A DNA stretch of 64,000 nucleotides, from the sequence record KU935715.1, one strand, 5' to 3'. Every line of letters begins with the position of its first letter. Position 1 is the first letter of the stretch. The notes beneath the pieces are model-generated. The model saw nothing but the letters and a program-made list of their open reading frames with translations, ran no database searches and was not told where the DNA came from. This document shows positions 23,628 through 55,949 of the stretch, in pieces. Both the position numbers and the translations under genes were made by a program. This DNA comes from Acinetobacter phage vB_AbaM_ME3.

Positions 23628-23628
23628 A

Positions 23629-24708
23629 CTATTTCCTTAATTCGTTAGGAACAATTCTTTTAAATCGCCAATGGTTACTTCCATCAGCAATATGATTTGC
23701 TCTAACTAATTTACAAAGTTTATTTCGAAATTCAGAATAATGAAAAGATTTAGTTGTACGAACTACTATACCTTCATGTCCTGCTTTAACAACTTGTTTA
23801 AATAAATCATTAATTACAACTTCATCGTATGGTCCTCGATATATTTCTTGAACCATTGTCATACCTAACAATTCAAACCATTCTTTTGTATCATCCCAAG
23901 ATAGACATATGTCCTTATCCCACACTTGGAATCCGTACAAATATGAATCTAAATCTTGATAATGAATTGCATGTTTAGCATATAAATTCTCTGCATAGTA
24001 ACGCATACCTTCAGGAATATTATAAGCAATATGTTGATAATGGAAGTTCTTTGCCCAAGCACGAGATTCATGATCTAAAGAATCGATAGAACGAGCATGA
24101 CAATAATCGGGGTATCCCGCAAAGTTCTCTCCATCCATTTTAATAGTTATTACAATTTCATCAGATACTAAATGATGTGATATATTGTAATTAGTTTTAT
24201 CATCTTCAGTTTTATGAGCACTTAAAGGATGATGATACGAACGAGGATACTTGTAATAATGAGTAAATTCATCTAGTACTCCGCCATCAGATAAAACTTT
24301 CTGAACTGATTCATCATAGAATAATGGACCAGGCATTCTCTTACCATTAAGAAGAATGATGTTACCCCATTTATCATATTGATGATCAGGGTACATATAT
24401 TCAGGAAGAACAACTTTTTGAGCTCCTACCTTCTCTCTTACTTCATCACAACTAATAACTGTTTGTTCGCACTTTAAATGACAAGAATCACAGACGGTAC
24501 CAGCGTTTTCGATATGATAGCCAAAACAATCCGAAAATAAACGTCTTTCGACAATGTGATGCACAGATAATTTCTCTGTACTACCACAGAAGATACACTT
24601 GTGGTTGTCTCTTATTAAACCTTGTTCTCTAAATTCATCTCTAGATAAAGGTTTCCCATCTGTTCCATGACAACCACAAATTGTTGAGTGAGGTTTACTA
24701 GATTTCAT
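23629..24708 (-). CDS. Rnl2-like ATP-dependent RNA ligase with N-terminal Cys/His (HNH-like) zinc-finger domain
   Basis: Nucleotidyltransferase motif I IKMDGEN (KxDGxN, as in T4 Rnl2 KIHGTN). Motif IV/V HEGIVVRTTK...FRNKLCK. The N-terminal 80 aa is rich in C/H pairs (CGCHG...CIFCG...HHIVERR...CDSCH). Confidence 0.55.
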   Translation of the reverse strand: MKSSKPHSTICGCHGTDGKPLSRDEFREQGLIRDNHKCIFCGSTEKLSVHHIVERRLFSDCFGYHIENAGTVCDSCHLKCEQTVISCDEVREKVGAQKVVLPEYMYPDHQYDKWGNIILLNGKRMPGPLFYDESVQKVLSDGGVLDEFTHYYKYPRSYHHPLSAHKTEDDKTNYNISHHLVSDEIVITIKMDGENFAGYPDYCHARSIDSLDHESRAWAKNFHYQHIAYNIPEGMRYYAENLYAKHAIHYQDLDSYLYGFQVWDKDICLSWDDTKEWFELLGMTMVQEIYRGPYDEVVINDLFKQVVKAGHEGIVVRTTKSFHYSEFRNKLCKLVRANHIADGSNHWRFKRIVPNELRK

Positions 24709-25325: not shown

Positions 25326-25334
25326 AATTATTCC

Positions 25335-26070: not shown

Positions 26071-26115
26071 ATAAAGTGACTGTTTTAAATATAGACCACA
26101 TATAAATTCCTAAAA

Positions 26116-26457: not shown

Positions 26458-26461
26458 ATTA

Positions 26462-27583: not shown

Positions 27584-27953
27584 GTTTAATCTTAATTCCT
27601 AAATTTTTTTCAAGATCTTCTAATTTAGGATTGGTAAAAGACCAATACAATTTTAAATCAGAAGGAGTTAACTCAGTATCAGATGTAGTCTCAATAAGAA
27701 CTTCATATATTTTAATACTTTGAACATTTCCTTGATTAAATACTTCTTGAGTTACAGCATTAAATTGAAAAGCAGTTTGAAAATCTTCAAATACAGTTAC
27801 AGATGAAGATATTTGTCTGCTAAACATTCCTTCTATATAAGCTTCAAAACCTTCTTTAAGAGAGCTACGTAGAAATACATCTAGAATGTTATGAGAATCT
27901 AAAGAAACAACATATTGACTTCTTTTAGAAAATTTATTTAATTTAGCCATCAT
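27567..27953 (-). CDS. paralog of third array
   Basis: MMAKLNKFSKRSQYVV... Confidence 0.5.
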   Translation of the reverse strand: MMAKLNKFSKRSQYVVSLDSHNILDVFLRSSLKEGFEAYIEGMFSRQISSSVTVFEDFQTAFQFNAVTQEVFNQGNVQSIKIYEVLIETTSDTELTPSDLKLYWSFTNPKLEDLEKNLGIKIKRETIR

Positions 27954-28712
27954 GTTCTCTTTGATAATTATCCAAAGTTTTTGTCAAACTATTGAATATA
28001 ACTCGAAGAGAAAATTCATGATCTGTATTTTCTACAATATGTTTAATCTGATCTAAAAGGTTAATGCAACCTTTCTTACGTTTTTCTACTTTACAAGGTT
28101 GTTGCTGTGATAAGTAATCAATCAATCGTTCTAAACTTCGTTTAACACAAGATACATTGTTTGTATAGATGTAATCACCTTCAATCATTGTATCGTTATA
28201 AGAAGTTGGTAATCGAATTTCTCCTATACAACCATTTTTAATATGTTCTTCAGTAATATATTTAAAATAATTAGATGGAAGAGGAATACGGAAAAGATGC
28301 TGTTTAACTTCAGAAGAACAGATCATATCTTGAGAATGTTCATTGAAATAACGTCTATAAGTTGAAAAATCATCAGCTTTATATGTTGGAAAATTTGCAT
28401 CAACTAAAGCGTCATCTTTAGGTAAGTCTACATAACAACTTGCATATGAATAAGCTGCTGCTTTACTAACAGCATTCTTACTACATTTAATTGATTTAAT
28501 CTCTTCTTTAGAGAAAACAAATCTACTAGAAGTTTTAATTACCTTTCCATTTACTAATGTAATTTCAATTTCTTTTCGATTACGATTATGAACAATAGAA
28601 AAAGTAGTATTTAAATATGGAATAACTACTACATAATCTTTATTACTCTTCTCGTCTGGAATAAGAGTGCTATTCATATTTACAAAATTAATAGCAAATA
28701 TTTTTTCAATCA
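27943..28712 (-). CDS. hypothetical protein (~256 aa; start refined)
   Basis: The track ORF extends to 28842, but its first 43 codons are the alternative frame of the S/G-rich upstream gene. ATG at 28712 (MIEKIF...) overlaps that gene's stop (TATGATTGA). Confidence 0.5.
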
Positions 28713-36027: not shown

Positions 36028-38055
36028 TTAAATAGATACTTGATATACACGTTGGGTTTTACCTGATACACGTACTACAAATTCATTGTTAGTACTGTCA
36101 TTAAATCCAACACCACTTAATTGTTCTTCTGAAGGAGCAACACGTAGTTTACTTCCTAAGACTTCGAAGACTTTACGATGTTTCGTTAATTCTGGACGTA
36201 AGAATTCGTTAAAGAAACTACGAGGTGTTTCTGGATTCTTACAACCTTCTAACATAAACATATAATGCTTATTACCTTCAGCTTGATCGCCCCAATGATT
36301 TGGAGAATTCATGACTAAGCTTACAGGAACAAACGTATTTGTATTAATACCCCAAATCTCTTGACCTGGACCATCAGAGCTTTCTAATAATTGACAAACT
36401 TTTTTAACAGTAAAACCAGTACCATCAAATTCAATATCAAGCATTGTTTCATTTTGATTGAAAGCTTTTTCATATGTGAAGTTTTGTACTACACCATCAG
36501 CTTCAACTTGTAAAACAAAACCAACATTAGTATTAGAACGTTTAGAGTAATTATTTACAATTACACGATAAACCCCTTTAGTCATACGACGACGATCAGG
36601 GTAGATAATATTTTCAACTGGCTCTGTATCTGAATGTTTATCCAAACCATTCATATCTAAATCTAATGTACCACCATTACTAGAATGCTTATTTCGATAC
36701 CAGATACGTTGACCTGTTGGCTCCTGAATAGATAGATCTAAATCATCAGCATTAAACCAACTCAATGATACTCGAAGATCACCTTCAACTGAGCCACCAA
36801 ATTTCTTAACAGTTTCACGAATTGAATCTGTAATGTCTCCATTGTAAGCCCATGAAAAACCATTATCCCAACGTAATAATGAAGTACGTGGTTGAACAGG
36901 GGCAATTAAAGAAACAAAGTTTGGTTTCAATTTGTTAGTGACTAACAATTCAACTTTATTAGATGTAGGTAATACATTTGCTAAAAAGTCTTTAATTCCA
37001 ATAGCAATAGCTTTGGTTAAGATTTTAGGATCAAATTTTGAAGAAGCTTCTTGTGTAAGATCATCAAATACATTTAAAGCTTTTTTAGCATTTGCAGAGA
37101 ATAATACTTCAGATACATTAATATCTGTTTCTTTAGCAAATCGACGTTGGAGATCATCTTCGAGTCCTAAACTTTTAACTACTTCTTGTGCTTCTGAAAT
37201 CATACGAGGTGTGATTACAGCTGAAGTACGTTTGTAGTTAGTAGGAGCAACTTTAGATTCAAATTTAGAAACAGCAGTATCTAAATCAATACCTGAACTA
37301 ATATCTTCTACTAATGTTCCAATAACTGTATTACGGAAACGAGCATTAAAATGTTCTGTAGCAACTGTATGCCAAATAAATGCTTCTTTATTAGCTTCAG
37401 GAACAGCTTCATATTTCTTTTTAAGATCTACAAAAGCTTTAACTTGAGAACGGAATTCATTTCCACGATAAATAGAATTACCATCAATTAGCTCAAGAAC
37501 TGTCTCAGCAGCATCTAAAGAAAATTCCTTTAATCCACGTTGAATTACTTGATAAGAATTATTGTATTCACCAACAACAGAAGAAAAATCATTTACCGAA
37601 ACAACTAAAGACTTAGGAACTTCAGCGTAAAAATGATTCCAGCTTACATTACGAACTAAGTCTTTAGTTGTAGCTGAACCAATAATAGCTGTTTCAGAGC
37701 GATATACAGCTGCAATAGGAGTATCAAGAACAAATTTATTTAAAGCATTTGCTACAGCTTGATAGTATCCCTCTACTTCTACATTCCAGATAGATGTTTT
37801 CTTAAATGTACGAGGATCAATTGCAACAACACCACCCATACGACGAATAAAAGACTTACAATTATTACAATCGTATTCACGTCGTTCTTTTAACATTGGG
37901 TTAGTGCCTTCAGGGAATGCAGATAAATAAGTTTCCCAAAGAACATCTGGATTAATATCAACACGAACAAGCACTAATCCAGCAGCAGTTAAAGTACGAA
38001 TTTGTTGATAGATAGCTTTTTGAAAATTAATAAAGTTACTCATCTTCTTCTCCAA
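36028..38055 (-). CDS. large protein of the Ter-associated operon; C-terminal region with TerD-like signature
   Basis: 675 aa. The C-terminal segment LRVSLSWFNADDLDLSIQEP...GGTLDLDMNG echoes the GWD...DLDLS core of the TerD domain at 41521..42132. First gene of an overlapping-ORF operon. Confidence 0.5.
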   Translation of the reverse strand: MEKKMSNFINFQKAIYQQIRTLTAAGLVLVRVDINPDVLWETYLSAFPEGTNPMLKERREYDCNNCKSFIRRMGGVVAIDPRTFKKTSIWNVEVEGYYQAVANALNKFVLDTPIAAVYRSETAIIGSATTKDLVRNVSWNHFYAEVPKSLVVSVNDFSSVVGEYNNSYQVIQRGLKEFSLDAAETVLELIDGNSIYRGNEFRSQVKAFVDLKKKYEAVPEANKEAFIWHTVATEHFNARFRNTVIGTLVEDISSGIDLDTAVSKFESKVAPTNYKRTSAVITPRMISEAQEVVKSLGLEDDLQRRFAKETDINVSEVLFSANAKKALNVFDDLTQEASSKFDPKILTKAIAIGIKDFLANVLPTSNKVELLVTNKLKPNFVSLIAPVQPRTSLLRWDNGFSWAYNGDITDSIRETVKKFGGSVEGDLRVSLSWFNADDLDLSIQEPTGQRIWYRNKHSSNGGTLDLDMNGLDKHSDTEPVENIIYPDRRRMTKGVYRVIVNNYSKRSNTNVGFVLQVEADGVVQNFTYEKAFNQNETMLDIEFDGTGFTVKKVCQLLESSDGPGQEIWGINTNTFVPVSLVMNSPNHWGDQAEGNKHYMFMLEGCKNPETPRSFFNEFLRPELTKHRKVFEVLGSKLRVAPSEEQLSGVGFNDSTNNEFVVRVSGKTQRVYQVSI

Positions 38056-38241: not shown

Positions 38242-39309
38242 TTATCTCAAAATAGCTATAGCTTGATAAGGTGAAATATTTGAATCAATCTCTATTTCAA
38301 CTTCTAATGGATCTGCAAGAGATTTCATAAAATGATAAACAGAAGCTGAAGAACCTGAACAAATAATTAATCGAGGTTTTCGACGAAGTAATGCACGAGT
38401 GCATTCACTAATCGTTGGCTTGATCTTTAGTTCATCTTGAACATTATAAGTTTCAGTAACATGATCAATAACAAAATTTGTACGCCGATCACATTGCTGC
38501 TTCAGATAAGAAGTAACCTTAGCAGGAATACTATCAAATTTATCTAATACTTCAGTAATTTGATCAAGAAAGTAGTTAGTTACATCATACTCTTGAAGAT
38601 TCTGATATATTGCACATGTGTGATATTTACCTTTATCTGAAATTACAGAACGAGATAATAACCCACTAATTACACTATTAAGAATTCCAAAAGGAATAAT
38701 TTCATCAGTGTCTGTAGCATAGATATCAGAGATATGATTAATGTCATTTAAGACTACTAAACGAAAAGGTTTCATACCTAAAGGTAAACCTAACTGTCTC
38801 CAACTTTCACGCAACTGATTGAAAATTGTTCCTTTACCAGTCCAACCATCTACAAAGAATAGATCACATTCTGCACTATGTTTTTCGATAATATGATTAA
38901 ATGCTAATTCATCTAATCCAAAATCTCGAATAATAGATAGTGCATAATGGTGTACTTTAATCTTATAACGTAGTTCTAGAGAACGTTTAATTAATACACC
39001 TAAAGGTAGTCCAGCTCGAATTAAACTAGCTAATACAATATTGTTTTTATCTTTTGATTGTTCAAAAATTGCATCAGCTAATCCATTAATCCATTTACCT
39101 AAACTAATACGATATGAGTAAGAACTCATTAAACGATTAAATTCAGATAATTGTTCACGAGATGGAGCATCTTCAGATAACAGAAAAGATGAATAATGTT
39201 CACCAGAAGCAATACGAGCTTCTTTTTCATCTTTAGTGATAAATGTATGATCTGTAGAAATATTTAATAAAAGGGTAACATCTTCTGGTTTAAATGTACT
39301 AAAAGTCAT
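38242..39309 (-). CDS. phosphoribosyltransferase (type I PRTase-like) paralog A
   Basis: PRPP-loop-like LFFVDGWTGKGT. Its N-terminal region AGLPLGVLIKRSL is paralogous to the second PRTase (AETGLGLGYLVHNQL). Confidence 0.5.
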   Translation of the reverse strand: MTFSTFKPEDVTLLLNISTDHTFITKDEKEARIASGEHYSSFLLSEDAPSREQLSEFNRLMSSYSYRISLGKWINGLADAIFEQSKDKNNIVLASLIRAGLPLGVLIKRSLELRYKIKVHHYALSIIRDFGLDELAFNHIIEKHSAECDLFFVDGWTGKGTIFNQLRESWRQLGLPLGMKPFRLVVLNDINHISDIYATDTDEIIPFGILNSVISGLLSRSVISDKGKYHTCAIYQNLQEYDVTNYFLDQITEVLDKFDSIPAKVTSYLKQQCDRRTNFVIDHVTETYNVQDELKIKPTISECTRALLRRKPRLIICSGSSASVYHFMKSLADPLEVEIEIDSNISPYQAIAILR

Positions 39310-40025
39310 GATAATAACTCTTTAATAATTTGAACATTATCTTTAGTAGGAGTCATTAAGAAATCACATTCTAACATAAAGAACAGATCAGATTTTGAAT
39401 CACCTATACCAATAGTAACTACACCTGGATGTAGCTCTAACATCTTTTTCTTAATGAAACGAACAGCATCTGTTTTAGGTTTTAATGTTTTAGGGAATAT
39501 AGAAAAACCAGTACCATTAATATACAACTCAAGCCCTTTGTGTTGCTTTAGAATAGAATTTAATTTTAATAAATCCGTAGACTTGTTGTTAATGTTCCCT
39601 TCAATATAAAACCCATAAGTTTTATGAGTAATTAATTTTGAATGAACATTATACAAATGAAGGTACTTAATACTTTCTCTTAATTCATTCTGACTACTAG
39701 ATACTTTACCAATAAGGGTGTCAGTAAATTCTGGAATCAATTTATTATCATAGGTATAAATAAATACACCATAATTACAAACTTTAAATGAGTTAAAGTT
39801 AAAAGTTGATTCAACACGTTTTAAACTTTCAATAGATCTAGCAGTTACAGGAATAACACCACTAGAGCCTGAGTTAAATTCATTAAATAAAGAAATTTGT
39901 TTAGGGGTAGTGCAAATATTACTACCAGAATCTGATGTATAAACAACGTGACGTGGTTCATCAGACTCTAGATGGCGTTCAGTTTGAATGAAAGTTAAAT
40001 CGAGATCACAAAAGCTTAAAAACAT
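39306..40025 (-). CDS. HAD-superfamily phosphatase
   Basis: Motif I FCDLDLTF (DxDxT) at the N-terminus. Motif IV GIGDSKSDL near the C-terminus. Confidence 0.6.
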   Translation of the reverse strand: MFLSFCDLDLTFIQTERHLESDEPRHVVYTSDSGSNICTTPKQISLFNEFNSGSSGVIPVTARSIESLKRVESTFNFNSFKVCNYGVFIYTYDNKLIPEFTDTLIGKVSSSQNELRESIKYLHLYNVHSKLITHKTYGFYIEGNINNKSTDLLKLNSILKQHKGLELYINGTGFSIFPKTLKPKTDAVRFIKKKMLELHPGVVTIGIGDSKSDLFFMLECDFLMTPTKDNVQIIKELLS

Positions 40026-41133
40026 TTACATTATTCCATGCAACCAATGATTCTATTAATGAACTTTGAGGAGCATCTTCGATAGATAAACACACAGAAT
40101 CAAGTCCTTTATTTAATAGGTCATCGAAATTATATAGATATGATTCCATTGTGGAATCATAAAGATTAGGAAGTACAAGTTTAGTCTTAATAATAGTATT
40201 AAGCTTTAACGGAGAAGATGAAATAGACAACAATACTGAATCTTTTCCAGTATTATTAAATTTATTTATACAATTTAGAAGAGAAGCAAAGATTAATTCA
40301 TCATAATAAATCTGAATATCAGAACTATTGAAGTACTTAGGATCTTTACATTTAGAGACAATGTCTGACAAAGAGTCAAACGAAGGTAATCTGAAATGAT
40401 CATTAGTTACATTTGTTAATGATACATTATCAGATTTTTTATAAGGAAGATGTGGTACTGGAACATTCGAATCTTGTTCCCAAGTATAAGTACCTTTAAC
40501 TAACGAATAAGTCTTTAGTTCAACATCATCTACTGTTAAATTTGAAGACCAATCTGTTAAAGAGAGAACAATAACTTTTCTTAAACAAGGTAATTTTTCT
40601 TTAAGAGATTCAACTAAATTCTTAATAGTATTACCTGTAGTGACTTCATCATCTACAATAATTAAAGTATTTGTTTGTTCTAAATGCTCATTAACAGATT
40701 TGTCAAAAGACTTATAGATATAATGATTAGGGAAATGACTATGAGGTTCTACAAATTCAGCAAGAACAGGAGCAGATAATGTTCTTCGTGTAGTTTGTAG
40801 ACGTAGAATATTAACCCAATCTTTAGATAATTGGTTATGAACTAAATAACCTAACCCTAAACCAGTTTCTGCTAAAGAGAGCAGAGAAATTTTATTATTT
40901 TCACCTTCTAAGTCTTTAGACTCAATTTGTTCACTAAGAGACTTAGCTATAGAGTTTAATATACTAAAAGGTGTAGGGGTATAACGACCAATTACTTTAG
41001 ATACGAACATGAACTGACGTTTAGGATTTAAACGTTCAGCTAAAGAGCAAATACTATCAAAACGATAATGTTCAGTTTCGAAATTCAGAGATAATTTTCC
41101 AGTATTTAAATTATACTCTTTAAAATTTGACAT
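40006..41133 (-). CDS. phosphoribosyltransferase (type I PRTase) paralog B
   Basis: Canonical PRPP-binding loop TLIIVDDEVTTGNT (hhhhDDxxxTGxT) at about residue 150. It has a ~200-aa C-terminal extension. Confidence 0.65.
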   Translation of the reverse strand: MSNFKEYNLNTGKLSLNFETEHYRFDSICSLAERLNPKRQFMFVSKVIGRYTPTPFSILNSIAKSLSEQIESKDLEGENNKISLLSLAETGLGLGYLVHNQLSKDWVNILRLQTTRRTLSAPVLAEFVEPHSHFPNHYIYKSFDKSVNEHLEQTNTLIIVDDEVTTGNTIKNLVESLKEKLPCLRKVIVLSLTDWSSNLTVDDVELKTYSLVKGTYTWEQDSNVPVPHLPYKKSDNVSLTNVTNDHFRLPSFDSLSDIVSKCKDPKYFNSSDIQIYYDELIFASLLNCINKFNNTGKDSVLLSISSSPLKLNTIIKTKLVLPNLYDSTMESYLYNFDDLLNKGLDSVCLSIEDAPQSSLIESLVAWNNVNVFKLL

Positions 41134-41136
41134 GTC

Positions 41137-41436
41137 TTAATCCTTTTTAGGATAGATATATTGTTGGTATTGAGCAATTGCAGCAGCTGAAGAGAAACCT
41201 TTATCAAGAAGAATACATCGAACAGTATCTTCAATATTCTCCAGACTAACCATAACATCTTGTAAAGATAAAGGTGGTTTTGGTTCTTCATCGAAGTCTT
41301 GATAATCTAATTGAGATTCTATCTTTTCAGCAGATCCTTTCTTTTCTTTTTCAGAAATATCTAATAAGGACTCTTCAATATGATGCAGGCTCATTAAGAT
41401 GTCTAAAATGAGTTTTGTATTATCTTGGTGTGACAC
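41137..41436 (-). CDS. hypothetical acidic protein (99 aa), GTG start
   Basis: GTG at 41436 preceded by an AAGGA Shine-Dalgarno. It lies downstream of the intra-operon terminator. Confidence 0.5.
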   Translation of the reverse strand: MSHQDNTKLILDILMSLHHIEESLLDISEKEKKGSAEKIESQLDYQDFDEEPKPPLSLQDVMVSLENIEDTVRCILLDKGFSSAAAIAQYQQYIYPKKD

Positions 41437-41447
41437 TTTAAATCCTT

Positions 41448-41482
41448 CTGAAAAAGAAAAGGACAGAATATTTCATCTGTCC
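41448..41482 (-). terminator. intrinsic terminator after TerD gene
   Basis: 7-bp stem GGACAGA / TCTGTCC with an 8-nt loop. The minus-strand RNA hairpin is followed by UUUUCUUUUUC. Confidence 0.55.
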
Positions 41483-41520
41483 ATCTCTTTGTTATTTATT
41501 CAATTTAGAAATTTTAAATC

Positions 41521-42132
41521 TTATTCGGTTTTAGCACCATAAGATTGTAATACTTCTTCTAAGCCGTTATCAAATCCAAGATCGATTTTCTTAACTCGCC
41601 AACCACCATCATGACGATAGATTTCAGCAACATTAACAGCTTTAGATGCAGCATGATCTTCAGTCAAATCAATTTTGAGTGAATCCATACCATCAACATT
41701 TACATCAACGTAAGCATTTTCAACTTGACCAAATGTGATACCAAGATTCTTTTCATCATGGATACTCATAAGTACCATGATACATCCAATTTCGGGTGGT
41801 AGGGTTTCTAAATTTAGATTACCATTTTCATCATAACCGTCACCAGAACCATCACGATTGTCTTTATCAAGAACAATACTACCACAAGCCGATTTTAACA
41901 AGTTATAGAAAACAATTCCTGGATTTCCATCAGACTGTGTTACAAGATTTTTAGATTTTGAATCTGCTAATAAAATAAAACTTAAATCTAAGTCATGTTT
42001 AACATTAGATTGACGAGCAGAATCCCAACCACAGCCTACATGTACACTTTTTAAAGATACAGCAGAACCATCAGGTTTAGCTAAACGAATAGGTACACCT
42101 TTAGTTAAAGGGATAACATGTTGAGTAGTCAT
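41521..42132 (-). CDS. terD: TerD-domain protein (tellurite-resistance TerD/TerZ/CABP family)
   Basis: Collinear with bacterial TerD: KG..I.L.K, the VGLGWD block (HVGCGWDS), DLDLS, the acidic Ca-binding run DNRDGSGDGYDENGNLNLE, and the C-terminal block EIYRHDGGWRVKKIDLGFDNGL. Confidence 0.85.
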   Translation of the reverse strand: MTTQHVIPLTKGVPIRLAKPDGSAVSLKSVHVGCGWDSARQSNVKHDLDLSFILLADSKSKNLVTQSDGNPGIVFYNLLKSACGSIVLDKDNRDGSGDGYDENGNLNLETLPPEIGCIMVLMSIHDEKNLGITFGQVENAYVDVNVDGMDSLKIDLTEDHAASKAVNVAEIYRHDGGWRVKKIDLGFDNGLEEVLQSYGAKTE

Positions 42133-42142
42133 AATAAAATCC

Positions 42143-42493
42143 TTATGAAATTGTAAAACGAATAACAGGAGGAAGACCTGTTACTGAATAATTTATAATT
42201 GGTTCACGTTGGTTAGTTTTAATGTGTCTATAAGATGTAAGCTTTTTAACTAACCTTTCATGTTCCCATTTTTTAAACTTAGTCTCAGACTGCTCTAACA
42301 TCTGAGAAATATAAGGCGCCAAAAAACTTCCTGTATCTTTTAAGCTAAGGAGTTCTTTTCTGTACTCTTGAAGAGTTGACGCATATACTAAAATGAGCCT
42401 ACCTGACTGAGTACGAATTAAAGTTCCTTTATCAGTAATAAATAATTCGTACTCAAGTTGAGGTAGTTGTTTATTATGCTGCAAGTGTTCCAT
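42143..42493 (-). CDS. hypothetical protein (116 aa)
   Basis: ORF track; operon member. Confidence 0.5.
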   Translation of the reverse strand: MEHLQHNKQLPQLEYELFITDKGTLIRTQSGRLILVYASTLQEYRKELLSLKDTGSFLAPYISQMLEQSETKFKKWEHERLVKKLTSYRHIKTNQREPIINYSVTGLPPVIRFTIS

Positions 42494-43586
42494 TATCAGA
42501 ACTACTTTCTTTTTTGTTTTCTCGAATAGATGAGAAAACAGCTAAGATGATGAAGGCAATACTAATAAGGCCTACAGCAACTTCTGGTAGATGAATAAAC
42601 GGAGAAGAAAGCATAATCAATGCTAATGCTGCAATTGCATACATAGCACCATGTTCAAGATAACGATATGTATCAAGAGTTCCTTTCTTAACTAAATAAA
42701 CAGTTAAGCAACGAACAACCATAGCACCAATAGCTAAACCAAGCATGATAACAATAATGTCAGTAGTAACAGCAAAAGCTCCAGCTACACCATCAACGCT
42801 AAATGAAGCATCAACTAATTCTAGATAAAGGAAACCACCAATACCTGCTTTAACTGTACCAGTTGCTACTTGACCATTCGCTTCAGATTCTTCTTCAGTA
42901 TCACCAGTAAACATTTCAATAATGGAGCCTAAAGCTTGCACACCAAAATAAGAAGCGATACCTACGAGACCACCTTTAAAAATCTGACTACTTAAAATAG
43001 CATCTGACATTGTAATTACAATTAAGGCTGCAAGAACAATAAATGCAAACATATAAGGAGTAAACCAACCAAAGGTTTTACCTAATACTTCACCAACCTT
43101 CTCTAAAGGTCCTAACCAGTTAACATCTTTTTCATCATCAAAGAAGAAGTTTAAGAACACCAACAATAAGAACATACCACCAAAAGAAGCAACTAATGTA
43201 TGGCTTGCTAAAAGATGTTTAGAGTATTCGGTAGGACTATTAAGTGCTAATGTAAAAGATTCAATAAACGACATTTCTGTTGTGGATGAAACAATTACAA
43301 TAGGAAATACGAGTCGCATACCAAATACAGCAACAAGAATACCAACTGTTAAAAATAACTTTTGCCAGAATGGATTCCAATGTTTTAAAACTGTGGCATT
43401 ATATACAGCATTATCAATTGATAATGAAATTTCCAGTACAGCTAAAATAACTGTAATGAATAAGATATTGAATGCTTGACTTAATCCTGCATCTACACCG
43501 TGATTTAAACCCCAGAAGAAAGCTAAGGTTAAACACACCAGACCAAAGATGATAGAAAGTTTGAAGTTATCCCAAATATTTTTCAT
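42474..43586 (-). CDS. polytopic integral membrane protein (TerC-like?)
   Basis: 370 aa with about 8-9 hydrophobic helices. Its position in a Ter-type operon suggests a TerC/DUF475-like transporter, which is inference. Confidence 0.5.
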   Translation of the reverse strand: MKNIWDNFKLSIIFGLVCLTLAFFWGLNHGVDAGLSQAFNILFITVILAVLEISLSIDNAVYNATVLKHWNPFWQKLFLTVGILVAVFGMRLVFPIVIVSSTTEMSFIESFTLALNSPTEYSKHLLASHTLVASFGGMFLLLVFLNFFFDDEKDVNWLGPLEKVGEVLGKTFGWFTPYMFAFIVLAALIVITMSDAILSSQIFKGGLVGIASYFGVQALGSIIEMFTGDTEEESEANGQVATGTVKAGIGGFLYLELVDASFSVDGVAGAFAVTTDIIVIMLGLAIGAMVVRCLTVYLVKKGTLDTYRYLEHGAMYAIAALALIMLSSPFIHLPEVAVGLISIAFIILAVFSSIRENKKESSSDNGTLAA

Positions 43587-43598
43587 GATTAATCCTTA

Positions 43599-44288
43599 TT
43601 AACCAAATTTTGCAATAACTTCAGGATTGACTACAGCATCAATTAATTCTGCATCAGTCTTACTGAAATCAGCAATACTAGAGTAACCAACTGAATCGTA
43701 ACGATCACCTAAGCTACTTAAGAAGTTTGAATGGAAGCCTACACAAATAAGTTGAACATATACATTATTTGATGATTCGATTTGTTTGATTTTAGCTTCA
43801 AACTCACGTTCGTCAGATGAAGAGGTTTCACCATCTGTAATAAAGGTAATAAGTTGTTTACCTTTAATGGAAGCCAATGGGTTACCAAATAACCCACCAA
43901 GGAATCCACCGCCACCAAGTTTCTTAAGAATAGCATCGATAGCTGGTGTATAAGCTGTACCGCCAAAACCATACTTACGAATGCTTTCACCTAAGATATG
44001 TTCTACTTGGTCATATTGGCTTACATTTAATGTCCCAGCATCAAATGCTTGGCTATGATAAACAACAAATGGTAAGTTACCATCATCATCAATTACATTA
44101 CTAATACCAAGAAGATGACGAAGAATATTAGCTACAGTACCATTACCAAAGTAGTTAGACATACTTCCTGATTGATCTAATACTAAAGAGACATTAATGT
44201 CTTTAGGAATATTTGTAACACCTTTCTTTTGAAGAGAAATTACTACATCTTCAGAAACTTTTTTCAGAGAGATTACTTGAGAAGTCAT
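43599..44288 (-). CDS. vWA-domain protein (TerY-like)
   Basis: MIDAS motif VSLVLDQSGSM and a downstream conserved T (GGTAYTPAI); 229 aa. Confidence 0.7.
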   Translation of the reverse strand: MTSQVISLKKVSEDVVISLQKKGVTNIPKDINVSLVLDQSGSMSNYFGNGTVANILRHLLGISNVIDDDGNLPFVVYHSQAFDAGTLNVSQYDQVEHILGESIRKYGFGGTAYTPAIDAILKKLGGGGFLGGLFGNPLASIKGKQLITFITDGETSSSDEREFEAKIKQIESSNNVYVQLICVGFHSNFLSSLGDRYDSVGYSSIADFSKTDAELIDAVVNPEVIAKFG

Positions 44289-45250
44289 TATACTTCACCT
44301 ACATAATGGTTAGCGGTAACTTGGTATTGATCACCAAATAATTTAATAAGTTCTTTCTTGAGAACATCCATAGGATAATCATCAATGTTAGAGATTTTAA
44401 CAATTTCATAACGTTCTTGATTATGGAAATTTTGATAAATAATCTTACGACCAATAGCTTTATCAAAATGATCATTTACATGACATAATGCAGAACTTAC
44501 TGCCATATATGTCATTCCATTATGAACGAATAATAAAGCTAATCCAGTAATACCACCAGTAGAATTTAAATCTACTTCTTCGTTAGGATTTTTAACTTGC
44601 TGTTCGCAAATGTATTCAAATGTTCCATACATATTTTCGTAGAACTTATTATTATAACGACGAATATAAATTGGAATTGTTTGAATATTACGTGCAAGTA
44701 ATCCTTCAAATTGGGCAGTAATAGTAGACTTAGCTAAAATCTCTAACTCTGCTTCTTTGGCAAAAGTAAGAGGATGTACACCAGTATCTGGTTTTTCTTG
44801 TTTAGGTAAAGGAGCTTTTTCAAGAACTACTTTATTAATGAAACGATAGAATTGGCTCAATACTTTAGGATATTGGCGATCTTCAGTTTCTAAGATAATT
44901 TGATTATTAATTAATTGAGATTTTAAACGATCTTTTGCTTCTACACGACCGATTAAGCGAGAATAAGTATCTTCTTTACTACAAATAGCATAAGAATACT
45001 GAGGAAGAGAAAGTGAAGGGGAAACTAAAATAGCAACACATACACCGTTAATACGATTTGTGTTATAACGACGAGCGTTATTAATTTTAGTGGCTAATAA
45101 GTGACTGTGGTGAAAGATATATACTTTCGAGTCTGGATAGTTTTCTTTAAACCAACTATTTAGTTGGATGTCAGATTCATGATAAGCAACATTGAAATTG
45201 ACTTGACGATTTTTCTTAGCAGATGGATTTCCAATCTGAGCAACTGTCAT
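44288..45250 (-). CDS. hypothetical protein (320 aa), last gene of Ter-associated operon
   Basis: ORF track; 1-nt overlap with the vWA gene. Confidence 0.55.
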   Translation of the reverse strand: MTVAQIGNPSAKKNRQVNFNVAYHESDIQLNSWFKENYPDSKVYIFHHSHLLATKINNARRYNTNRINGVCVAILVSPSLSLPQYSYAICSKEDTYSRLIGRVEAKDRLKSQLINNQIILETEDRQYPKVLSQFYRFINKVVLEKAPLPKQEKPDTGVHPLTFAKEAELEILAKSTITAQFEGLLARNIQTIPIYIRRYNNKFYENMYGTFEYICEQQVKNPNEEVDLNSTGGITGLALLFVHNGMTYMAVSSALCHVNDHFDKAIGRKIIYQNFHNQERYEIVKISNIDDYPMDVLKKELIKLFGDQYQVTANHYVGEV

Positions 45251-51213: not shown

Positions 51214-52341
51214 TTAAGACATTAAAGAAATCTCTTTCATAAGATCTTCAAAGCTTTGTTTATTCTGTTCACGTGCAACTTCAGTTTGATGTTCATGCTG
51301 ATAGATTACATTATAAATTGGTTCTAACAACATACCAAAATAAGTATCTTTCTGAATGAACTTCTGATGTTCTTCTAGCTTTTCTTTTACTTTATCTTTA
51401 GGTTGAGTACCTTTATTATAAAGTTTAAGAAAAGCTGCACATGCTTCATACATACCTGTAATTTCAGCCCAAGATGTAATACGAACAATATCACTTACAG
51501 ACTTATCATCTAATTCTAATGGACCTAACAATAATTCACGAACCTTTTTAGAGTTCGCTTCTTTTGCAATATTCTTAAGGAATAACATTTCAAAGTTGGC
51601 ACTGCCACCTTCATTATGTTTAATCCCAGTAACAACGAAATCCTGTAAACCTCGAATATAAGCAAAATGATACTTAAAGAACTTAGCACGAGATAAAGAA
51701 ATCATTGGAATCTTTTTGTTAGGTTCATTAGGTGGTGAATATTCATAATTATTTCGTTTAGCATAACTTTCATATGCTTCAAGAATCATTGCAAATATCC
51801 AACCATCATTAGTTGCGAGTCCTACCGCCCCTTTAGCCTGAACAGCTTGAAATAGGTATGTGCTATAAGATGGAATTACTTCACGACCTTTCTTAGAGTC
51901 TTCCAAAGCAACGTCATAGAGTTTATATGGTTCATCTACTAATTTCTTAGTAACTGGATCAATTAATGCATCATTAGCATCATATTCACCTTTAATGTAT
52001 GTTTGAGTCCATTCAAGTTCTTCTTTACATACATCAGTTAACACAAACTCACGAAGAAGCTTTTGACACTCTGGTGAATTACCTGTAAACACAGGTGAAT
52101 GATCGCCATCAACATCGGAGTGTTCCGCCCCTAATACGTTTTTACTAAATAACAGAATTGATTTATTCTGCTCTTTAAGTAAATACTTTTCAATAGAAAT
52201 ACCATATTGATTCATAAGATAAATACGATAATCATCATAAGACCAGATTTTTACTCGGACGAGCTGGGTTCTCCATAACGAAATCTTCAATACAAGCCGA
52301 AAACTTGTACCAGCAGCATTATCTGCATCTATAGTTATTAA
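51214..52341 (-). CDS. 3' exon of intron-split gene of unknown function
   Basis: The frame is open from just after an in-frame TAG at 52342..52344 to the stop at 51214. There is no ATG or Shine-Dalgarno at its 5' end (the track start is TTG). It lies directly downstream of the group I intron core. It contains an acidic DVDGDH motif. Confidence 0.55.
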   Translation of the reverse strand, partial: LITIDADNAAGTSFRLVLKISLWRTQLVRVKIWSYDDYRIYLMNQYGISIEKYLLKEQNKSILLFSKNVLGAEHSDVDGDHSPVFTGNSPECQKLLREFVLTDVCKEELEWTQTYIKGEYDANDALIDPVTKKLVDEPYKLYDVALEDSKKGREVIPSYSTYLFQAVQAKGAVGLATNDGWIFAMILEAYESYAKRNNYEYSPPNEPNKKIPMISLSRAKFFKYHFAYIRGLQDFVVTGIKHNEGGSANFEMLFLKNIAKEANSKKVRELLLGPLELDDKSVSDIVRITSWAEITGMYEACAAFLKLYNKGTQPKDKVKEKLEEHQKFIQKDTYFGMLLEPIYNVIYQHEHQTEVAREQNKQSFEDLMKEISLMS

Positions 52342-52673
52342 CTATACGTCGAGACTATATCTTAATTTATACATATACTTATAGAATGATTATGTTATCT
52401 TTATCATTCAATATATGTATAAACCACAAGCACTTCGGAAACTCTTGTTCCCTACTCCTTCCTACAGGATAGTCGTTGAACCTTACTCTTAGGTAAAACC
52501 CTTAGAGTCTTGGCTGCTGATATTGCATTTACTCAGCGTAATTATAATAACTAATAGATAATTACACATGAATCTTCACACTTTTTAAACATTCACGCTT
52601 GCTATTTCTAGCTACGTTGTAGTGTATGAAGCTTTAGCCTTTCCCAGCAATTCACTTGTGTTACGACAGATGT

Positions 52674-53405
52674 CTATTCATCTGAAGAGCTTTTAATCTT
52701 TTCTTCAATAAAAGATTTAATTTCATTTAAAGCTTTAAATTTAAATAATTCAGTACAGCCTTTAAATGCATTACCATCTGAAATGTAATAACGATCAGAG
52801 TCAAAAGTACTAAGTACTAATTTTTCTATATTAACTACATCTCTAGCTTTAGCTTCTAAGTCTAGTATTACTTCTTTTTCGAATTGTTTATAAACAACAG
52901 GTTTAAACCTATCTTCAACAGTTCGTGAAGTTACACCAACTTTTATAAATTCATACTGTTTTGATTTAAATTTAACTAAATAAATACGAGCAGGTTCTAA
53001 TCCAGATTCATCAAGATTAGTCATTCCACCAAAACGAGAAAGTTTTAATCTTCCACATTTTGGACAACCATTGCCTTGTAAGTGACTATTAGGTTCTTGC
53101 TTAAAATCACCATGATGAGGACATCCAATAGTAATTTTAATATTCCAAGCCTTATAATCAACTTTTGAATAATCGTATTTAGTACCATGCATTTTTACAA
53201 AATCTTCAATAACTTTATCTTTCGATTTAGTATTTCTTTTAGATTTTGCATTAGTCTCACAAGGTTTACAACCATTAAAATGTAGATGATTTGCAGGTGT
53301 CTGTTCAAAAGTATTAGAACATTGATTACAAATTATCTTAATCTTAACATTGTTTTTATTGTAGTCTATTAACGAATAATCAAAACGATTTCCGCCATAC
53401 TGCAT
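52674..53405 (-). CDS. intron-encoded homing-endonuclease-like protein (T5orf172/GIY-YIG-like C-terminal domain, tandem Cys zinc-ribbon repeats)
   Basis: The C-terminal block ARIYLVKFKSKQYEFIKVGVTSRTVEDRFK fits the GIY-(10)-YIG / T5orf172 pattern. The N-terminus has two repeats: F/YDYS..DY....KI.I.C..C/HH..F.Q.P..HL.G.GC..C. An upstream ATG at 53451 with an AAGGAG Shine-Dalgarno is +1 out of frame with it. Confidence 0.55.
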   Translation of the reverse strand: MQYGGNRFDYSLIDYNKNNVKIKIICNQCSNTFEQTPANHLHFNGCKPCETNAKSKRNTKSKDKVIEDFVKMHGTKYDYSKVDYKAWNIKITIGCPHHGDFKQEPNSHLQGNGCPKCGRLKLSRFGGMTNLDESGLEPARIYLVKFKSKQYEFIKVGVTSRTVEDRFKPVVYKQFEKEVILDLEAKARDVVNIEKLVLSTFDSDRYYISDGNAFKGCTELFKFKALNEIKSFIEEKIKSSSDE

Positions 53406-53462
53406 GAGCTTTCTGAATAAAATTGTCTTTTCTTTCTTCTATTGATTGCATTTAGTTCTCCT

Positions 53463-53476
53463 TATTTATATTTATA
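53463..53476 (-). promoter_or_regulatory. T4-type late promoter motif(s) TATAAATA upstream of intron ORF
   Basis: On the minus strand the sequence reads CATTATATAAATATAAATAAGGAGAACTAAATG. Two overlapping TATAAATA octamers lie 12-25 nt upstream of the Shine-Dalgarno/ATG. Confidence 0.5.
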
Positions 53477-53552
53477 TAATGTTAATTGGTTATATTTCAA
53501 ACCATAAAACAATTATATAATACTTCTTTGGAGAACTCAATTCATAGATTAA

Positions 53553-55949
53553 TTAACTAGGATTACGTACATGAAGTCCATATAAACCATGTTGTAAAGA
53601 TTCAACAGGTCCTCGTTCTTTACCAAAACAATCATATTCAATACTTTGATAAAGTTTATCATCAGTAATAACAAGAGTATTAGGAGGTAACAAAACATCT
53701 ACTGATTGCTTCATAGCAAAACCTTGCATATGAGGATTACTAAATGTTGTTACTCGCATTTCTTTTGCTTTATCACTAGTAAAAATGATTCCATAAATGT
53801 CACGTAAATAACGGTCACTCAATGTATCTCGTTTTACCTTTGCTGTACGACGATTAAAGATATAATGAGGAGTATCAGTGAGGAAAGCCTTAATCATTTT
53901 TCCAATAGTGATAAATACTGCATGATACATCCATGCCCCTGTTTTTAATTCACTCTCAAACATCTTAAGCGTTTTAGCACAAGGAATACGGATTAGTGGA
54001 CCTAACTGAGGACGGAAATCAAAGAAAAATCCATTAGGGTTAAACTCTTCATCTGTCAATATAGTTGAAGATTGAGTTAACTGTACAGTTGATGTAATGA
54101 TATCATCGTCACTAAACATCTTTAAACGTTTAATATCTTTAACTGTATAATGTGGTAATTCTTTTTCACCATGAAATACATCAGATTGTAATAGAATCTT
54201 TTGAAATTCTACTAAAGCTTCTTTCATATCTTCATCAATAAAACGATTCCAAATATGATGAAAGAGTCTTGAATCTAAATTATGGAATAAATTACGACCA
54301 CATTCATGAGATAACGATTGAGGTTCATATGAAGAATATGTATCAGTTAATTCAGTATAACGATAATATACAATACCAATTTGAACATTTTCTTGAAGAT
54401 TACCAAATTCATCATAATACTTATAGTTAGGAAGAGATTGAGAAGCTGTATTAATTTCTAACTCATCTAAAGTATTTAATAAATTTGACCAATGTTTAGG
54501 TTTATAATATCCAAGATCAGTTGCTAAGGCTGCACGAGCAAGTTTAATGCCATTTTGTTTAGCTTTAAAACTATTCATACCAAAAGCCATATCAGGACGA
54601 AGTTCTTTACCATCTTCTAAGATAATCTTACCTAAATAAGGTTTACCTTTAGTAACAGCTTTTAAACCTGTATTACTATCAATACGAGCATTTCCTGCAC
54701 GAACTGCAATACGTAAACTAATGTTTTCACGACCATAAGGACCAGTAGTCATACGTCGACGAACAAAACGAACAGCTTTTACACCTTCAACATATACATC
54801 ACGGAAACCACCATTTTCTTCTACACGTCCAATAAGAATCTTATCTTTAACATGTTCAAAACCATGCTTATCAATATAAGAATCTGCATGAACAATTGAA
54901 CCATCTTCAGGAATACAAAGATGATCAAAAGCATCTAAGATTTTATGTTCTTTCCATACATATGTATTATAAAAATCTTCAGTAACTTCACATTCTCCAT
55001 AAAGATACTGTTGAGTTTCTTCATTAATAGGACGAATTACAACTAAAGCAGATTTATAACATTGGTCTTTAGGAAGATAAGCTTGATGTTCTTCAGAATA
55101 ATTATAATCTTGAGCAAAATGTGAATCAGGCTCAAAAGCATAAATTTCTTTAGCATCAGCAGTTACGTGAGTTTTATTTCGAGCTGTAATATTTTGAGCT
55201 GCTTTAAATAAAGATTTAAAGAAATATTTTCCTTTACTATCTTGAAATAAAGTATGACCAACAGAACGATAAATAGGCCCATTAGTATAAGGACTTAATA
55301 CTAACTTACCTGTTTTAGAACAACCTGATTCACTACTATAATGAATTGGTAATTGATCTTTTAAACGAGCCCAAACAATATTGTTCGGAATATACCCTTT
55401 ACGATGAAGAAGATCTCCAAGAGTACCTCGTTTGAATTCATTTTGATCTGTAAATAATGAACAGATAATATATGAATGTTCATCTTTCGCTTTAGCATTA
55501 AAAGCTTCACATAACGTATTATTAGCGAAAGAGTTAACTGCTTTAATGTCATTTTCTAATAAACGACTATAAGCAACAGGTCTACCTACAAATGTTAACA
55601 AGCGATGTTGTAATGCTATGTAAAGCATTTCATTTTGATTAAAGATATACCGATCTGAAGTATCAGTAAAGTAATCTAATTTCGCTTTAAAAGAACTACG
55701 CTCAATTAAAAATTGAGGATAACTAACTTTATTTTTAGCAGGATTATAAATCGTGTCAGGAATAATGATTTCATTATCACGATACTCATCATTAAGTAAC
55801 GTAATAGAAATTTCATGTTGCTTTAATTGAACCTGAATAAGATCTTCAAATCCTTCTGGAATTAACATTAACGGTTGAGTACCAGTTAATACAGATGGAA
55901 TTCTTGGAACTGAACGAAATTGTCCATTATAACCAATAGGTTCTTGCAT
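53553..55949 (-). CDS. 5' exon (798-codon ORF) of intron-split gene of unknown function
   Basis: A long ORF directly upstream of the intron. No P-loop, polymerase or RNR catalytic motifs were recognised. It contains the motif YYRYTELTD. Its last codons may be intron-encoded. Confidence 0.55.
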   Translation of the reverse strand: MQEPIGYNGQFRSVPRIPSVLTGTQPLMLIPEGFEDLIQVQLKQHEISITLLNDEYRDNEIIIPDTIYNPAKNKVSYPQFLIERSSFKAKLDYFTDTSDRYIFNQNEMLYIALQHRLLTFVGRPVAYSRLLENDIKAVNSFANNTLCEAFNAKAKDEHSYIICSLFTDQNEFKRGTLGDLLHRKGYIPNNIVWARLKDQLPIHYSSESGCSKTGKLVLSPYTNGPIYRSVGHTLFQDSKGKYFFKSLFKAAQNITARNKTHVTADAKEIYAFEPDSHFAQDYNYSEEHQAYLPKDQCYKSALVVIRPINEETQQYLYGECEVTEDFYNTYVWKEHKILDAFDHLCIPEDGSIVHADSYIDKHGFEHVKDKILIGRVEENGGFRDVYVEGVKAVRFVRRRMTTGPYGRENISLRIAVRAGNARIDSNTGLKAVTKGKPYLGKIILEDGKELRPDMAFGMNSFKAKQNGIKLARAALATDLGYYKPKHWSNLLNTLDELEINTASQSLPNYKYYDEFGNLQENVQIGIVYYRYTELTDTYSSYEPQSLSHECGRNLFHNLDSRLFHHIWNRFIDEDMKEALVEFQKILLQSDVFHGEKELPHYTVKDIKRLKMFSDDDIITSTVQLTQSSTILTDEEFNPNGFFFDFRPQLGPLIRIPCAKTLKMFESELKTGAWMYHAVFITIGKMIKAFLTDTPHYIFNRRTAKVKRDTLSDRYLRDIYGIIFTSDKAKEMRVTTFSNPHMQGFAMKQSVDVLLPPNTLVITDDKLYQSIEYDCFGKERGPVESLQHGLYGLHVRNPS

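Follow-up and report, generated by a model that had tools for sequence, protein, structure and literature searches.

In a 64-kb window of the genome of Acinetobacter phage vB_AbaM_ME3 (ME3), a large gene is interrupted by a group I intron that carries the gene for a putative homing endonuclease. (The window is the whole stretch of DNA that we analyzed. All coordinates refer to it, and all of its genes are on the minus strand.) We assign a probability of about 90% to our best overall explanation: the gene for a single-chain two-barrel RNA polymerase is interrupted by a self-splicing group I intron that is mobile and carries a homing-endonuclease gene. An initial annotation, made from the sequence alone, had proposed that an intron with an endonuclease open reading frame (ORF) splits one gene of ~1150 amino acids (aa). 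This is borne out by a match to the Rfam model RF00028, by the junction in homologues, and by the 1152-aa product of the ligated exons.

Intron boundaries and ribozyme structure

Three ORFs cover the region: 798 codons at 55949..53553, 243 aa at 53405..52674, and 358 codons at 52290..51214 (all -). Using RF00028 and the intronless homologues, we placed the group I intron at 53555..52279 (-, 1277 nt). It starts with UAAUUAAUC and ends with ...UUGAAGAUUUCG, whose terminal G is 52279. On one side of it, exon 1 of the polymerase gene (53556..55949, -) has 798 codons, the last four of which are CGU AAU CCU AGU, and encodes the predicted beta-like double-psi beta-barrel. On the other side, exon 2 (51214..52278, -) has 354 codons and a stop, and its first codons are UUA UGG (L799 and W800). 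The initial annotation had described flanking ORFs of 798 and 358 codons, and these are present, but exon 2 does not begin at the second ORF's TTG (52290); it starts at 52278. As had been stated, exon 2 lacks a start signal: there is neither a start codon nor a Shine-Dalgarno sequence at its 5' end.

A search with RF00028 (Intron_gpI) had been suggested as a check. The match spans 52720..52329 (-) and the full model (1-253), and its 51.0 bits (E = 5e-10) exceed the gathering score of 50. In the whole 64 kb, RF00028 is the only Rfam family that reaches its gathering score. The P, Q, R and S core strings that the initial annotation had recognized are present at 52652-52350 (-). The suggestion that Rfam would also fix the splice sites did not work out, since the end of the match, UAUAG (52329), is not the 3' splice site. 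Splicing there would be in frame, but it would add 17 residues (YADNAAGTSFRLVLKI...) that are absent from all 15 full-length homologues.

Because uninterrupted homologues fix the junction, we place the 3' splice site after G52279. In the 15 uninterrupted full-length sequences, ...H-x-R-x-P-(S/F)-L-W-x-x-Q... continues unbroken across the site. Joining the ME3 exons (CCU AGU | UUA UGG, with UUUCG as the end of the intron) restores the reading frame and gives RNPS|LWRTQ, with no gap or insertion relative to these homologues. Also, the 30 aa around the ligated junction are the same as in a close relative, L001, whose protein is 95% identical and whose gene is uninterrupted there. (L001 to L023 are contigs that we fetched as encoding members of the host protein's family and mapped with tblastn, except that L017 was found via a P4 motif instead.) Only one pair of splice sites satisfies the homologue alignment and also lets exon 1 end in U and the intron in G. 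The insertion point is between codons S798 and L799, within a beta'-type motif (R-x-P-S|L-W), and the catalytic S-D-x-D-G-D loop follows 55 codons downstream. The 3' splice site is 50 nt past UAUAG, and those 50 nt form two more hairpins, P9.1 and P9.2.

The 5' strand of P1 (53546..53558, -) combines exon and intron nucleotides: exon AGU (53558-53556) and intron U53555 pair with AGCU, while intron nucleotides 4-10 (UUAAUCU, 53552-53546) pair with AGAUUAA. The 3' strand, with the internal guide sequence, is AGAUUAA-A-AGCU (52688..52699, -). The AGCU of the guide is 52691..52688, and a small internal loop separates the proximal helix from the distal one. At the cleavage site, the last exon nucleotide (U53556) forms a U.G wobble with G52690. 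RNAduplex gives the same P1 architecture in five introns, and the distal helix covaries (UUAAUCU/AGAUUAA, UGAAUUCU/AGAAUUCA, UGAAUUUU/AAAAUUCA, and GAUUUAUCAA/UUGAUAAAUU). The loop that P1 closes is 817-844 nt in the endonuclease-bearing introns versus 54 nt in L019, which has the same intron but no ORF, so the endonuclease gene is an insertion in the P1 loop. The initial annotation was right that the ORF lies 5' of the core, but the ORF is inside the P1 loop rather than simply upstream.

We rejected three other placements of the guide or of P1. Within the first 40 nt of the intron, the sole exact complement of the exon end belongs to P4. A local hairpin with G20 as the guide is not conserved in L002 or L006, and we prefer the long-range P1. 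Rfam's "P1/P2" hairpin (52717..52695) is not conserved in L002 and is a chance placement.

The P2 hairpin (52667..52684, -; CAGAUG-AAUAGA-CAUCUG) is kept in L002 and L006, and in L019 it shows a compensatory change (CAGACG/CGUCUG). The catalytic core (52329..52660, -), as aligned by Rfam, includes P3, the P4-P5 extension, P6, P7, P7.1/P7.2, P8, and P9. Beyond it are the peripheral hairpins (52279..52328, -), which are P9.1 (GCAG..CUGC) and P9.2 (GGUACAAG..CUUGUAUU), followed by GAAGAUUUCG with the terminal G. P9.1 and P9.2 are both conserved, and P9.2 covaries (a C-G pair is U-A in L006). Given four introns, RNAalifold recovers P3, P4-P5, P6, P7.1, P7.2, P8, P9, P9.1, and P9.2. Of the 127 pairs, 36 have a compensatory change on both sides, and these include pairs in P3, the P5 extension, P7.2, P8, P9, and P9.2. 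(P7 is invariant, so it is uninformative on covariation either way.)

In the mechanism that we propose, the polymerase gene would be transcribed through the intron, and P1 would form by long-range pairing over the ~840-nt endonuclease insert. Guanosine would attack after U53556, the terminal G52279 would dock, and the exons would be ligated to ...CCU AGU UUA UGG.... The first three nucleotides of the intron are UAA, an in-frame stop, so unspliced RNA would give a truncated product of 798 aa, which would lack the metal-binding aspartates.

The host gene and its interruptions

We searched 5.8 billion proteins with the first spliced product that we considered (the one spliced at UAUAG), which gave 46 matches, all metagenomic. 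Of these, 15 are full-length and uninterrupted (1138-1314 aa) and are 29-58% identical. A profile search of 1.84 billion representatives found 188 metagenomic clusters of this family at 50% identity. No Pfam or PHROG family was found for either exon or for eight distant relatives. (Exon 2 has a match to phrog_36555, "ribonucleotide reductase", with E = 0.006, which we dismissed as noise.) Similarly, a profile of 16 full-length sequences found nothing relevant among the sequences in PDB. With no profile match to a described RNA polymerase family, this is therefore a new family within the two-barrel superfamily.

The assignment to that superfamily comes from structure prediction. An AlphaFold2 model of the spliced protein, made from the family alignment, has a mean predicted local distance difference test (pLDDT) of 84.4 and a predicted template modeling score (pTM) of 0.80. 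When we compared this model to PDB with Foldseek, the top matches were solely second-largest (Rpb2/beta) subunits of multisubunit RNA polymerases, with E values down to 6e-8. The best structure matches are subunits of DNA-dependent polymerases and the phage transcriptases of phiKZ, AR9, P23-45 (gp96), and P74 (gp62). Because of these structure searches, we place both barrels in one chain. Because SDVDGD is also invariant in the family, we predict that the host gene encodes a single-chain RNA polymerase with a beta-like and a beta'-like barrel.

The initial annotation had noticed the strings SDVDGDH and YYRYTE, which are both present, and had likened the former to the magnesium-binding loop of RNA polymerases. 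This comparison was apt: the structure search points to a two-barrel polymerase, and D853, D855, and D857 are invariant. More broadly, the metal-binding loop S852-D853-x-D855-G856-D857, encoded by exon 2, is invariant in the 16 full-length sequences, as are R795, P797, L799, W800, Q803, and W810. R795-x-P797-x-L799-W800 resembles what we take to be the universal beta' motif, N-R-x-P-(S/T)-L-H. In the beta-like barrel, which is encoded by exon 1, G428 and K430 (in "NTGLK") and K462 are invariant, and both lysines are within a strand-rich region of the model (408-545).

Neither an intron nor this polymerase is mentioned in the ME3 genome announcement (PMC5000817), and in a literature search we found no paper that ties ME3 to an intron. 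In BFVD, the 798-aa product and a 333-aa product (exon 2 from M820) are separate "uncharacterized proteins" of ME3. Under our reading, the annotation of ME3 should be corrected: three "genes" (798 aa, the endonuclease, and 333 aa) would become one 1152-aa polymerase gene and a mobile intron. A 2021 survey of jumbo phages reported two-barrel enzymes only for group 1 phages and for 0305phi8-36 and c-st (PMC7824862). If we are correct, ME3-like phages have a single-chain two-barrel RNA polymerase of their own, from a family without a Pfam model. This would be a new branch for the small set of minimal two-barrel polymerases that are used to study the evolution of transcription enzymes.

We also looked for relatives in GenBank. 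Using tblastn with the exons and the distant relatives as queries against 50,697 phage records, we found only scraps, in a scrambled record that is marked as UNVERIFIED. This record (MG366115.1, Acinetobacter phage PBAB25) is a 40-kb "Lokivirus" sequence that contains, at 22717-28351, three rearranged fragments that are 100% identical to parts of the window (51940-52954, 54401-55237, and 55076-55280). The PBAB25 assembly is chimeric, and the Korean sewage isolate from which it came contained an ME3-like jumbo phage. Two other leads were dropped. Within the window, the 1183-aa and 675-aa ORFs are not paralogues of the polymerase, as their hhalign probabilities against the family profile are below 1%. 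A link to a YonO-like enzyme of Bacillus phage 0305phi8-36 was not supported either, as the sole large candidate in 50 kb (gp201) is an unrelated P-loop protein.

Homologous introns are present at the same site in L002/L003, L005, L006, L018, L019, L020, L021, and L022/L023, and they share their termini (CCUAGU|UAA... and ...GAAGAUnnCG|UUAUGG). The cores of ME3, L002, and L006 are nearly identical. Overall, the intron cores are 78-90% identical, versus 59-66% for the flanking exon DNA, and this is between phages whose polymerase proteins are 48-58% identical. At its gathering score, Rfam has no match on these homologous loci. With a relaxed threshold it finds, at site 798, only the ORF-less copies (L005 at 39.6 bits and L019 at 38.3 bits). 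In other words, RF00028 is insensitive to ME3-type introns with large inserts.

The flanking sequences also suggest mobility. All of the intron-plus alleles at site 798 have AGT|TTATGG, while intron-less alleles encode the same amino acids as TCT|CTG, TCA|TTA, or GCG|CTT. For example, L001 has no intron at site 798 (its sequence there is ...AATCCTTCTCTGTGGAGA..., and the intron-less site is CGTAATCCTTCTCTGTGGAGAACC). This pattern is what co-conversion during homing would leave. By analogy with other homing endonucleases, the ME3 enzyme would cut the intron-less alleles of co-infecting relatives, and the intron and flanking exon sequence would be copied in. Pairs of intron-plus and intron-minus alleles are natural material for studying homing and competition between phages, as in PhiPA3 (discussed below).

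Site 798 is not the only site of interruption. Across the relatives, interruptions fall at four sites, which follow residues 798, ~855 (inside SDxDGD), ~951, and ~1021. Each of these is within a patch of invariant residues, and the recurrent sites mark the most constrained DNA of the polymerase gene. Occupancy varies: ME3 is interrupted at 798, L001 at 855, L007 at 951 and 1021, L006 at 798, 855, and 951, L002 at all four sites, and L004 at none. Among the 188 family clusters, fragment boundaries pile up at the same four profile positions. The inserts at the further sites are L001 8578-9979; L002 3981-4468 and 4757-6139; L006 9889-11215; and L007 4159-5664 and 5875-7309. Several of the inserts at these three sites have DUF723-type ORFs. 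Separately, the shared P4 motif (AATTGCTGGGAA..GCTAAAGCTT) led us to L017 (IMG/VR UViG_3300011977_000007), which has no homologue of the ME3 polymerase but has three Rfam-significant group I introns (51-58 bits) within 2 kb (2441-4424).

Several points weigh against our overall explanation. We infer splicing, homing, and polymerase activity from comparisons of sequences and from models. The polymerase assignment comes from a predicted structure and motifs, and there is no sequence-level match to Pfam's RNA polymerase families or to PDB chains. Because Rfam misses the near-identical introns of L002 and L006, the covariance-model evidence is limited to three matches at site 798, of which only that of ME3 reaches the gathering score (L005 and L019 score lower). 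The inserts at ~855, ~951, and ~1021 were located by tblastn only, and the insert of L005 at site 855 (8977-9395) has a weak Rfam match (27 bits). Finally, exon nucleotides contribute just 3 bp to P1 (with one further pair from the intron), and P10 has no more than 2-3 bp; the splice sites must be recognized largely through tertiary contacts.

We considered two other explanations for the host gene. The protein might have two barrels and yet not transcribe DNA: a QDE-1/RDR-type RNA-dependent RNA polymerase and a primase-like enzyme are two possibilities. We consider this unlikely, as the best structural matches are to DNA-dependent subunits and phage transcriptases, and the characterized single-chain two-barrel enzymes of phages (YonO, crAss-like gp66, and P23-45 gp96 and gp62) all transcribe DNA (PMC5467207, PMC10770324, 10.1101/2020.03.07.982082). 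Or, the intron might be a dead remnant and the polymerase might be split, so that the two ORFs are translated separately and then assemble, like the beta/beta' pieces of phiKZ-type enzymes. The deposited annotation does have two proteins (798 and 333 aa), and jumbo-phage polymerases are known that consist of several polypeptides (PMC7824862). However, with no start signal at the 5' end of exon 2, the first methionine is M820, and a start there would remove the invariant L799, W800, Q803, and W810. The break would also be inside a strand-forming barrel motif, in a gene that is uninterrupted in both close and distant relatives. Furthermore, the intron's core is more conserved than the exons and has compensatory changes, which argues for selection on RNA structure. 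A split enzyme therefore seems very improbable, and we favor a single polymerase that is made from spliced RNA.

The endonuclease gene and its expression

The main part of the endonuclease gene (52674..53393, -) ends with UAG (52676-52674) in the loop of P2. It encodes two modules of a helix and a treble-clef zinc finger, followed by a C-terminal T5orf172 nuclease-like domain (similar to the GIY-YIG superfamily). The 243-aa ORF scores above the cutoffs of T5orf172 (PF10544, 25.7 versus 20 bits) and of the DUF4379 treble-clef zinc finger (26.5 versus 24.5 bits), and it matches phrog_681 "endonuclease" (1e-44). This agrees with the T5orf172-type domain and zinc-ribbon repeats that had been proposed for it, and GenBank annotates 53405..52674 (-) of ME3 as "endonuclease". 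Judging from these similarities, the ORF, which is looped out of the ribozyme in P1, probably encodes a homing endonuclease.

The gene is spread over two reading frames. The initial annotation had noted that two copies of TATAAATA and AAGGAG precede the ORF, which is accurate, but AAGGAG and ATG 53451 do not open the 243-aa ORF. Instead, ATG 53451 opens a 23-codon ORF in frame 0 (MQSIEERKDNFIQKAHAVWRKSF*), and the long ORF is in the +1 frame. The frame-0 leader (53395..53451, -) runs from this ATG to UGG at 53397-53395 (MQSIEERKDNFIQKAHAVW), and the frame-0 stop is TGA at 53382-53380. At the candidate frameshift site, UGG-CGG-A (53391..53397, -), C53394 is the extra nucleotide, and reading in the +1 frame would begin with the codon GGA (53393-53391).

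We found this two-frame layout in five copies of the gene (ME3 53451..53380, -; L002 2569-2650; L006 8495-8575; L021 ~3226; and L022 ~1044). The five are 58-76% identical as protein. Each has a Shine-Dalgarno sequence and an ATG, 19-21 conserved frame-0 codons, and then 237-243 open codons in the +1 frame, and A-UGG-CGG-A is invariant in all of them. An in-frame relative, P0202 (RIDNFLIKARLKHGNKFDYS), aligns without gaps to the fused RKDNFIQKAHAVW-GNRFDYS, so there is exactly one extra nucleotide, the C. The ratio of nonsynonymous to synonymous substitution rates (dN/dS) is about 0.15-0.22 for the leader and 0.23-0.29 for the +1 part, where dS is 0.57-0.99. No sense codon is rarer in the window than CGG (3 of 14,954, or 0.2 per 1000 codons), and its presence at a conserved frame junction suggests programmed +1 frameshifting. 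Thus both frames are under purifying selection, the site is conserved, and the zero-frame codon there is one that would be slow. Glass-sponge mitochondria have a documented +1 shift at a rare CGG_A, where an extra C precedes GGA (PMC5009743).

Translation of the endonuclease also seems to be restrained. Its Shine-Dalgarno sequence is in the 3' arm (53454..53461, -; GGAGAACU) of a predicted stem whose 5' arm is at 53530..53537 (-; AGUUCUCC). The fold of 53575..53440 has a free energy of -26.4 kcal/mol (z = -3.45), and 0 of 200 shuffled sequences were as stable. The sequestering stem recurs in L002, L006, L021, and L022, with changes on both arms. In read-through pre-mRNA, the Shine-Dalgarno sequence would be paired with the upstream arm, which would throttle translation of the endonuclease.

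There are two kinds of promoter candidates. A sigma-70-like match (53512..53540, -; TTGAGT-17-TATAAT, 10/12) has a -35 box that overlaps the 5' arm of the stem, and similar matches are at the same place in L021 (10/12), L022 (9/12), and L006 (9/12). This is a candidate internal promoter for the endonuclease, but such matches are common by chance in AT-rich DNA, so it is only suggestive. The other candidate is the overlapping pair of TATAAATA, or TATAAATATAAATA (53463..53476, -), with AAGGAG downstream. The initial annotation took this pair to be a T4-type late promoter like those of I-TevI and I-TevII. The two copies do lie 12-25 nt upstream of ATG 53451, inside the loop of the sequestering stem, and a transcript that starts there would free the ribosome-binding site. 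Nevertheless, TATAAATA occurs 24 times in the window, versus 20.95 +/- 4.4 expected by chance. Just 8 of the 24 are on the coding strand, most of those are intragenic, and the motif is absent from the four homologous endonuclease-bearing introns. Also, we found no homologue of T4 gp55 or gp33 among the larger ORFs of the window that we scanned, and ME3 was reported to be related to Bacillus phage 0305phi8-36, not to T4 (PMC5000817). The sigma-70-like match, whose position is conserved, is no worse a candidate, and we doubt that the late promoter is real.

How the two frames are joined is harder to decide. We infer the activity and target of the endonuclease, as well as frameshifting, from conservation and similarity. 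Programmed +1 frameshifting at UGG-CGG-A is, in our view, close to an even call. We put slightly lower odds on the stronger proposal that the endonuclease may be made only via this conserved frameshift, which would be a throttle in addition to the sequestered ribosome-binding site and might be sensitive to the supply of tRNA. It is also quite possible, if somewhat doubtful, that all of the copies inherited one insertion of a C and that no frameshifting occurs, because the gene is a decaying pseudogene or is translated from an internal start. Degeneration is common among homing endonucleases, the 243-aa ORF is annotated in GenBank, and we identified no stimulatory element besides the rare codon. 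In-frame ATGs at 53405 in ME3 and at 8514 in L006 would allow shorter products. However, L002, L021, and L022 have no start codon in the +1 frame near the junction, and gene callers give products of only 116-183 aa for them. A decaying or internally started gene would also not explain why the frame-0 Shine-Dalgarno sequence and ATG are kept in 5/5 copies, with a leader that is conserved as protein and matches the N-terminus of the in-frame relatives. Nor would it explain why the +1 part has stayed open for 237-243 codons, with its low dN/dS, despite the divergence at synonymous sites, or why the junction is invariant and includes the rarest codon. The glass-sponge sites are a precedent for a +1 shift at CGG_A (PMC5009743).

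If frameshifting does occur, this would be the first homing-endonuclease gene for which a recoding signal is described; our literature search found no report of such recoding in these genes. Either way, the conserved two-frame gene is a testable candidate for a new way to control the nucleases of selfish elements.

Comparison with known systems and other observations in ME3

The ME3 element clearly belongs among the group I introns with homing endonucleases. Like it, the td, nrdB, and nrdD (sunY) introns of phage T4, which encode I-TevI, I-TevII, and I-TevIII, have extra P7.1/P7.2 and P9.x helices. In ME3 as in T4, the ribozyme loops out a free-standing endonuclease ORF, the intron interrupts an essential enzyme gene in a conserved region, and pairing of the ribosome-binding site in read-through RNA seems to restrain translation of the endonuclease. 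The initial annotation had called this the same arrangement as for I-TevI. That is fair for the sequestration of the ribosome-binding site, but not for the position of the ORF, the endonuclease family, or the frame structure. In ME3, the ORF is in the P1 loop instead of P6a or P9.1; the N-terminal zinc fingers and C-terminal T5orf172 domain are in the reverse order from I-TevI; and the ORF is split over two frames and lacks support for a late promoter. The host genes differ as well (an apparent RNA polymerase versus nucleotide metabolism).

The closest published parallel is the intron in gp210 of phage PhiPA3, a gene for the beta subunit of the virion RNA polymerase (Birkholz et al., Science 2024; PMC11620839). 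In both phages, a group I intron with a homing endonuclease is in an RNA polymerase gene of a jumbo phage, next to the aspartates of the catalytic region. By analogy to PhiPA3, a role for the ME3 intron in competition between co-infecting relatives is plausible. In contrast to ME3, where a single chain would have both barrels, the PhiPA3 gene encodes one subunit of a multisubunit polymerase, in a nucleus-forming phage. Also, the PhiPA3 endonuclease is an HNH nickase rather than the T5orf172 type, and the ME3-type gene has up to four interruptions in relatives, unlike PhiPA3.

As for the polymerase itself, it has no detectable sequence similarity to YonO (of SPbeta), phi14:2 gp66, P23-45 gp96/gp62 (P74 gp62), or QDE-1. 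Unlike these proteins, the ME3 polymerase is 1152 aa long, and its large N-terminal region and its helical C-terminal region are its own.

Several independent group I introns in one essential gene are found in orf142 of Staphylococcus phage Twort and in the DNA polymerase genes of SPO1-group phages. Like the interruptions in the ME3 family, these introns are at conserved sites, with or without endonuclease ORFs. The ME3 family has four sites with patchy occupancy (one in ME3, four in L002, and none in L004).

The candidate frameshift resembles those at slow codons in yeast Ty3, E. coli prfB, and mitochondrial genes of glass sponges (CGG_A or UGG_A) in that a rare zero-frame codon follows the P-site codon and one nucleotide would be skipped. 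As at the glass-sponge sites, GGA would then be read next, and diverged copies retain the site (PMC5009743). The ME3 candidate differs in being known from sequence alone, with no upstream Shine-Dalgarno-like element or downstream stimulator identified. Relative to all of these systems, the new features are the undescribed family of single-chain two-barrel polymerases as the host, the ORF in the P1 loop, the hot spot with four sites, and the conserved two-frame endonuclease gene.

ME3 might have a second two-barrel polymerase. Segment 2 of the protein A0A172Q021, which is encoded outside the window and is segmented in BFVD, resembles our polymerase model (Foldseek E = 1.4e-5 over 705 columns). 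The segment may be another two-barrel polymerase domain, which might lie within the 5,419-aa ME3_104. If real, it would parallel the virion/non-virion pair of polymerases in Thermus phage P23-45.

Another ME3 protein is linked to transcription by annotation. The 675-aa protein at 36028..38055 (-) belongs to phrog_1735 (E = 4e-257) and has homologues of 47% identity in over 500 phage genomes (from Klebsiella, Salmonella, Bacillus, and others). These homologues are annotated as "DNA-directed RNA polymerase" in some records and as hypothetical in most. The 675-aa protein has no profile similarity to the intron-bearing polymerase.

Elsewhere in the window, 38242..45250 (-) is a cluster of the tellurite-stress type, with a StiP protease that has a PELOTA domain, PRTase_2, TerC/DUF475, and a vWA-TerF-like protein. 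The polymerase gene of L004 is in the same kind of neighborhood (TerD, TerC, and vWA-TerF). An RNA ligase is encoded at 23629..24708 (-; PF09414, and phrog_24030 at 9e-193), and its N-terminal ~70 aa match PHROGs of HNH endonucleases. We found no tRNA genes in the window. Its G+C content is 29.6%, versus the 40% overall in the ME3 genome announcement.

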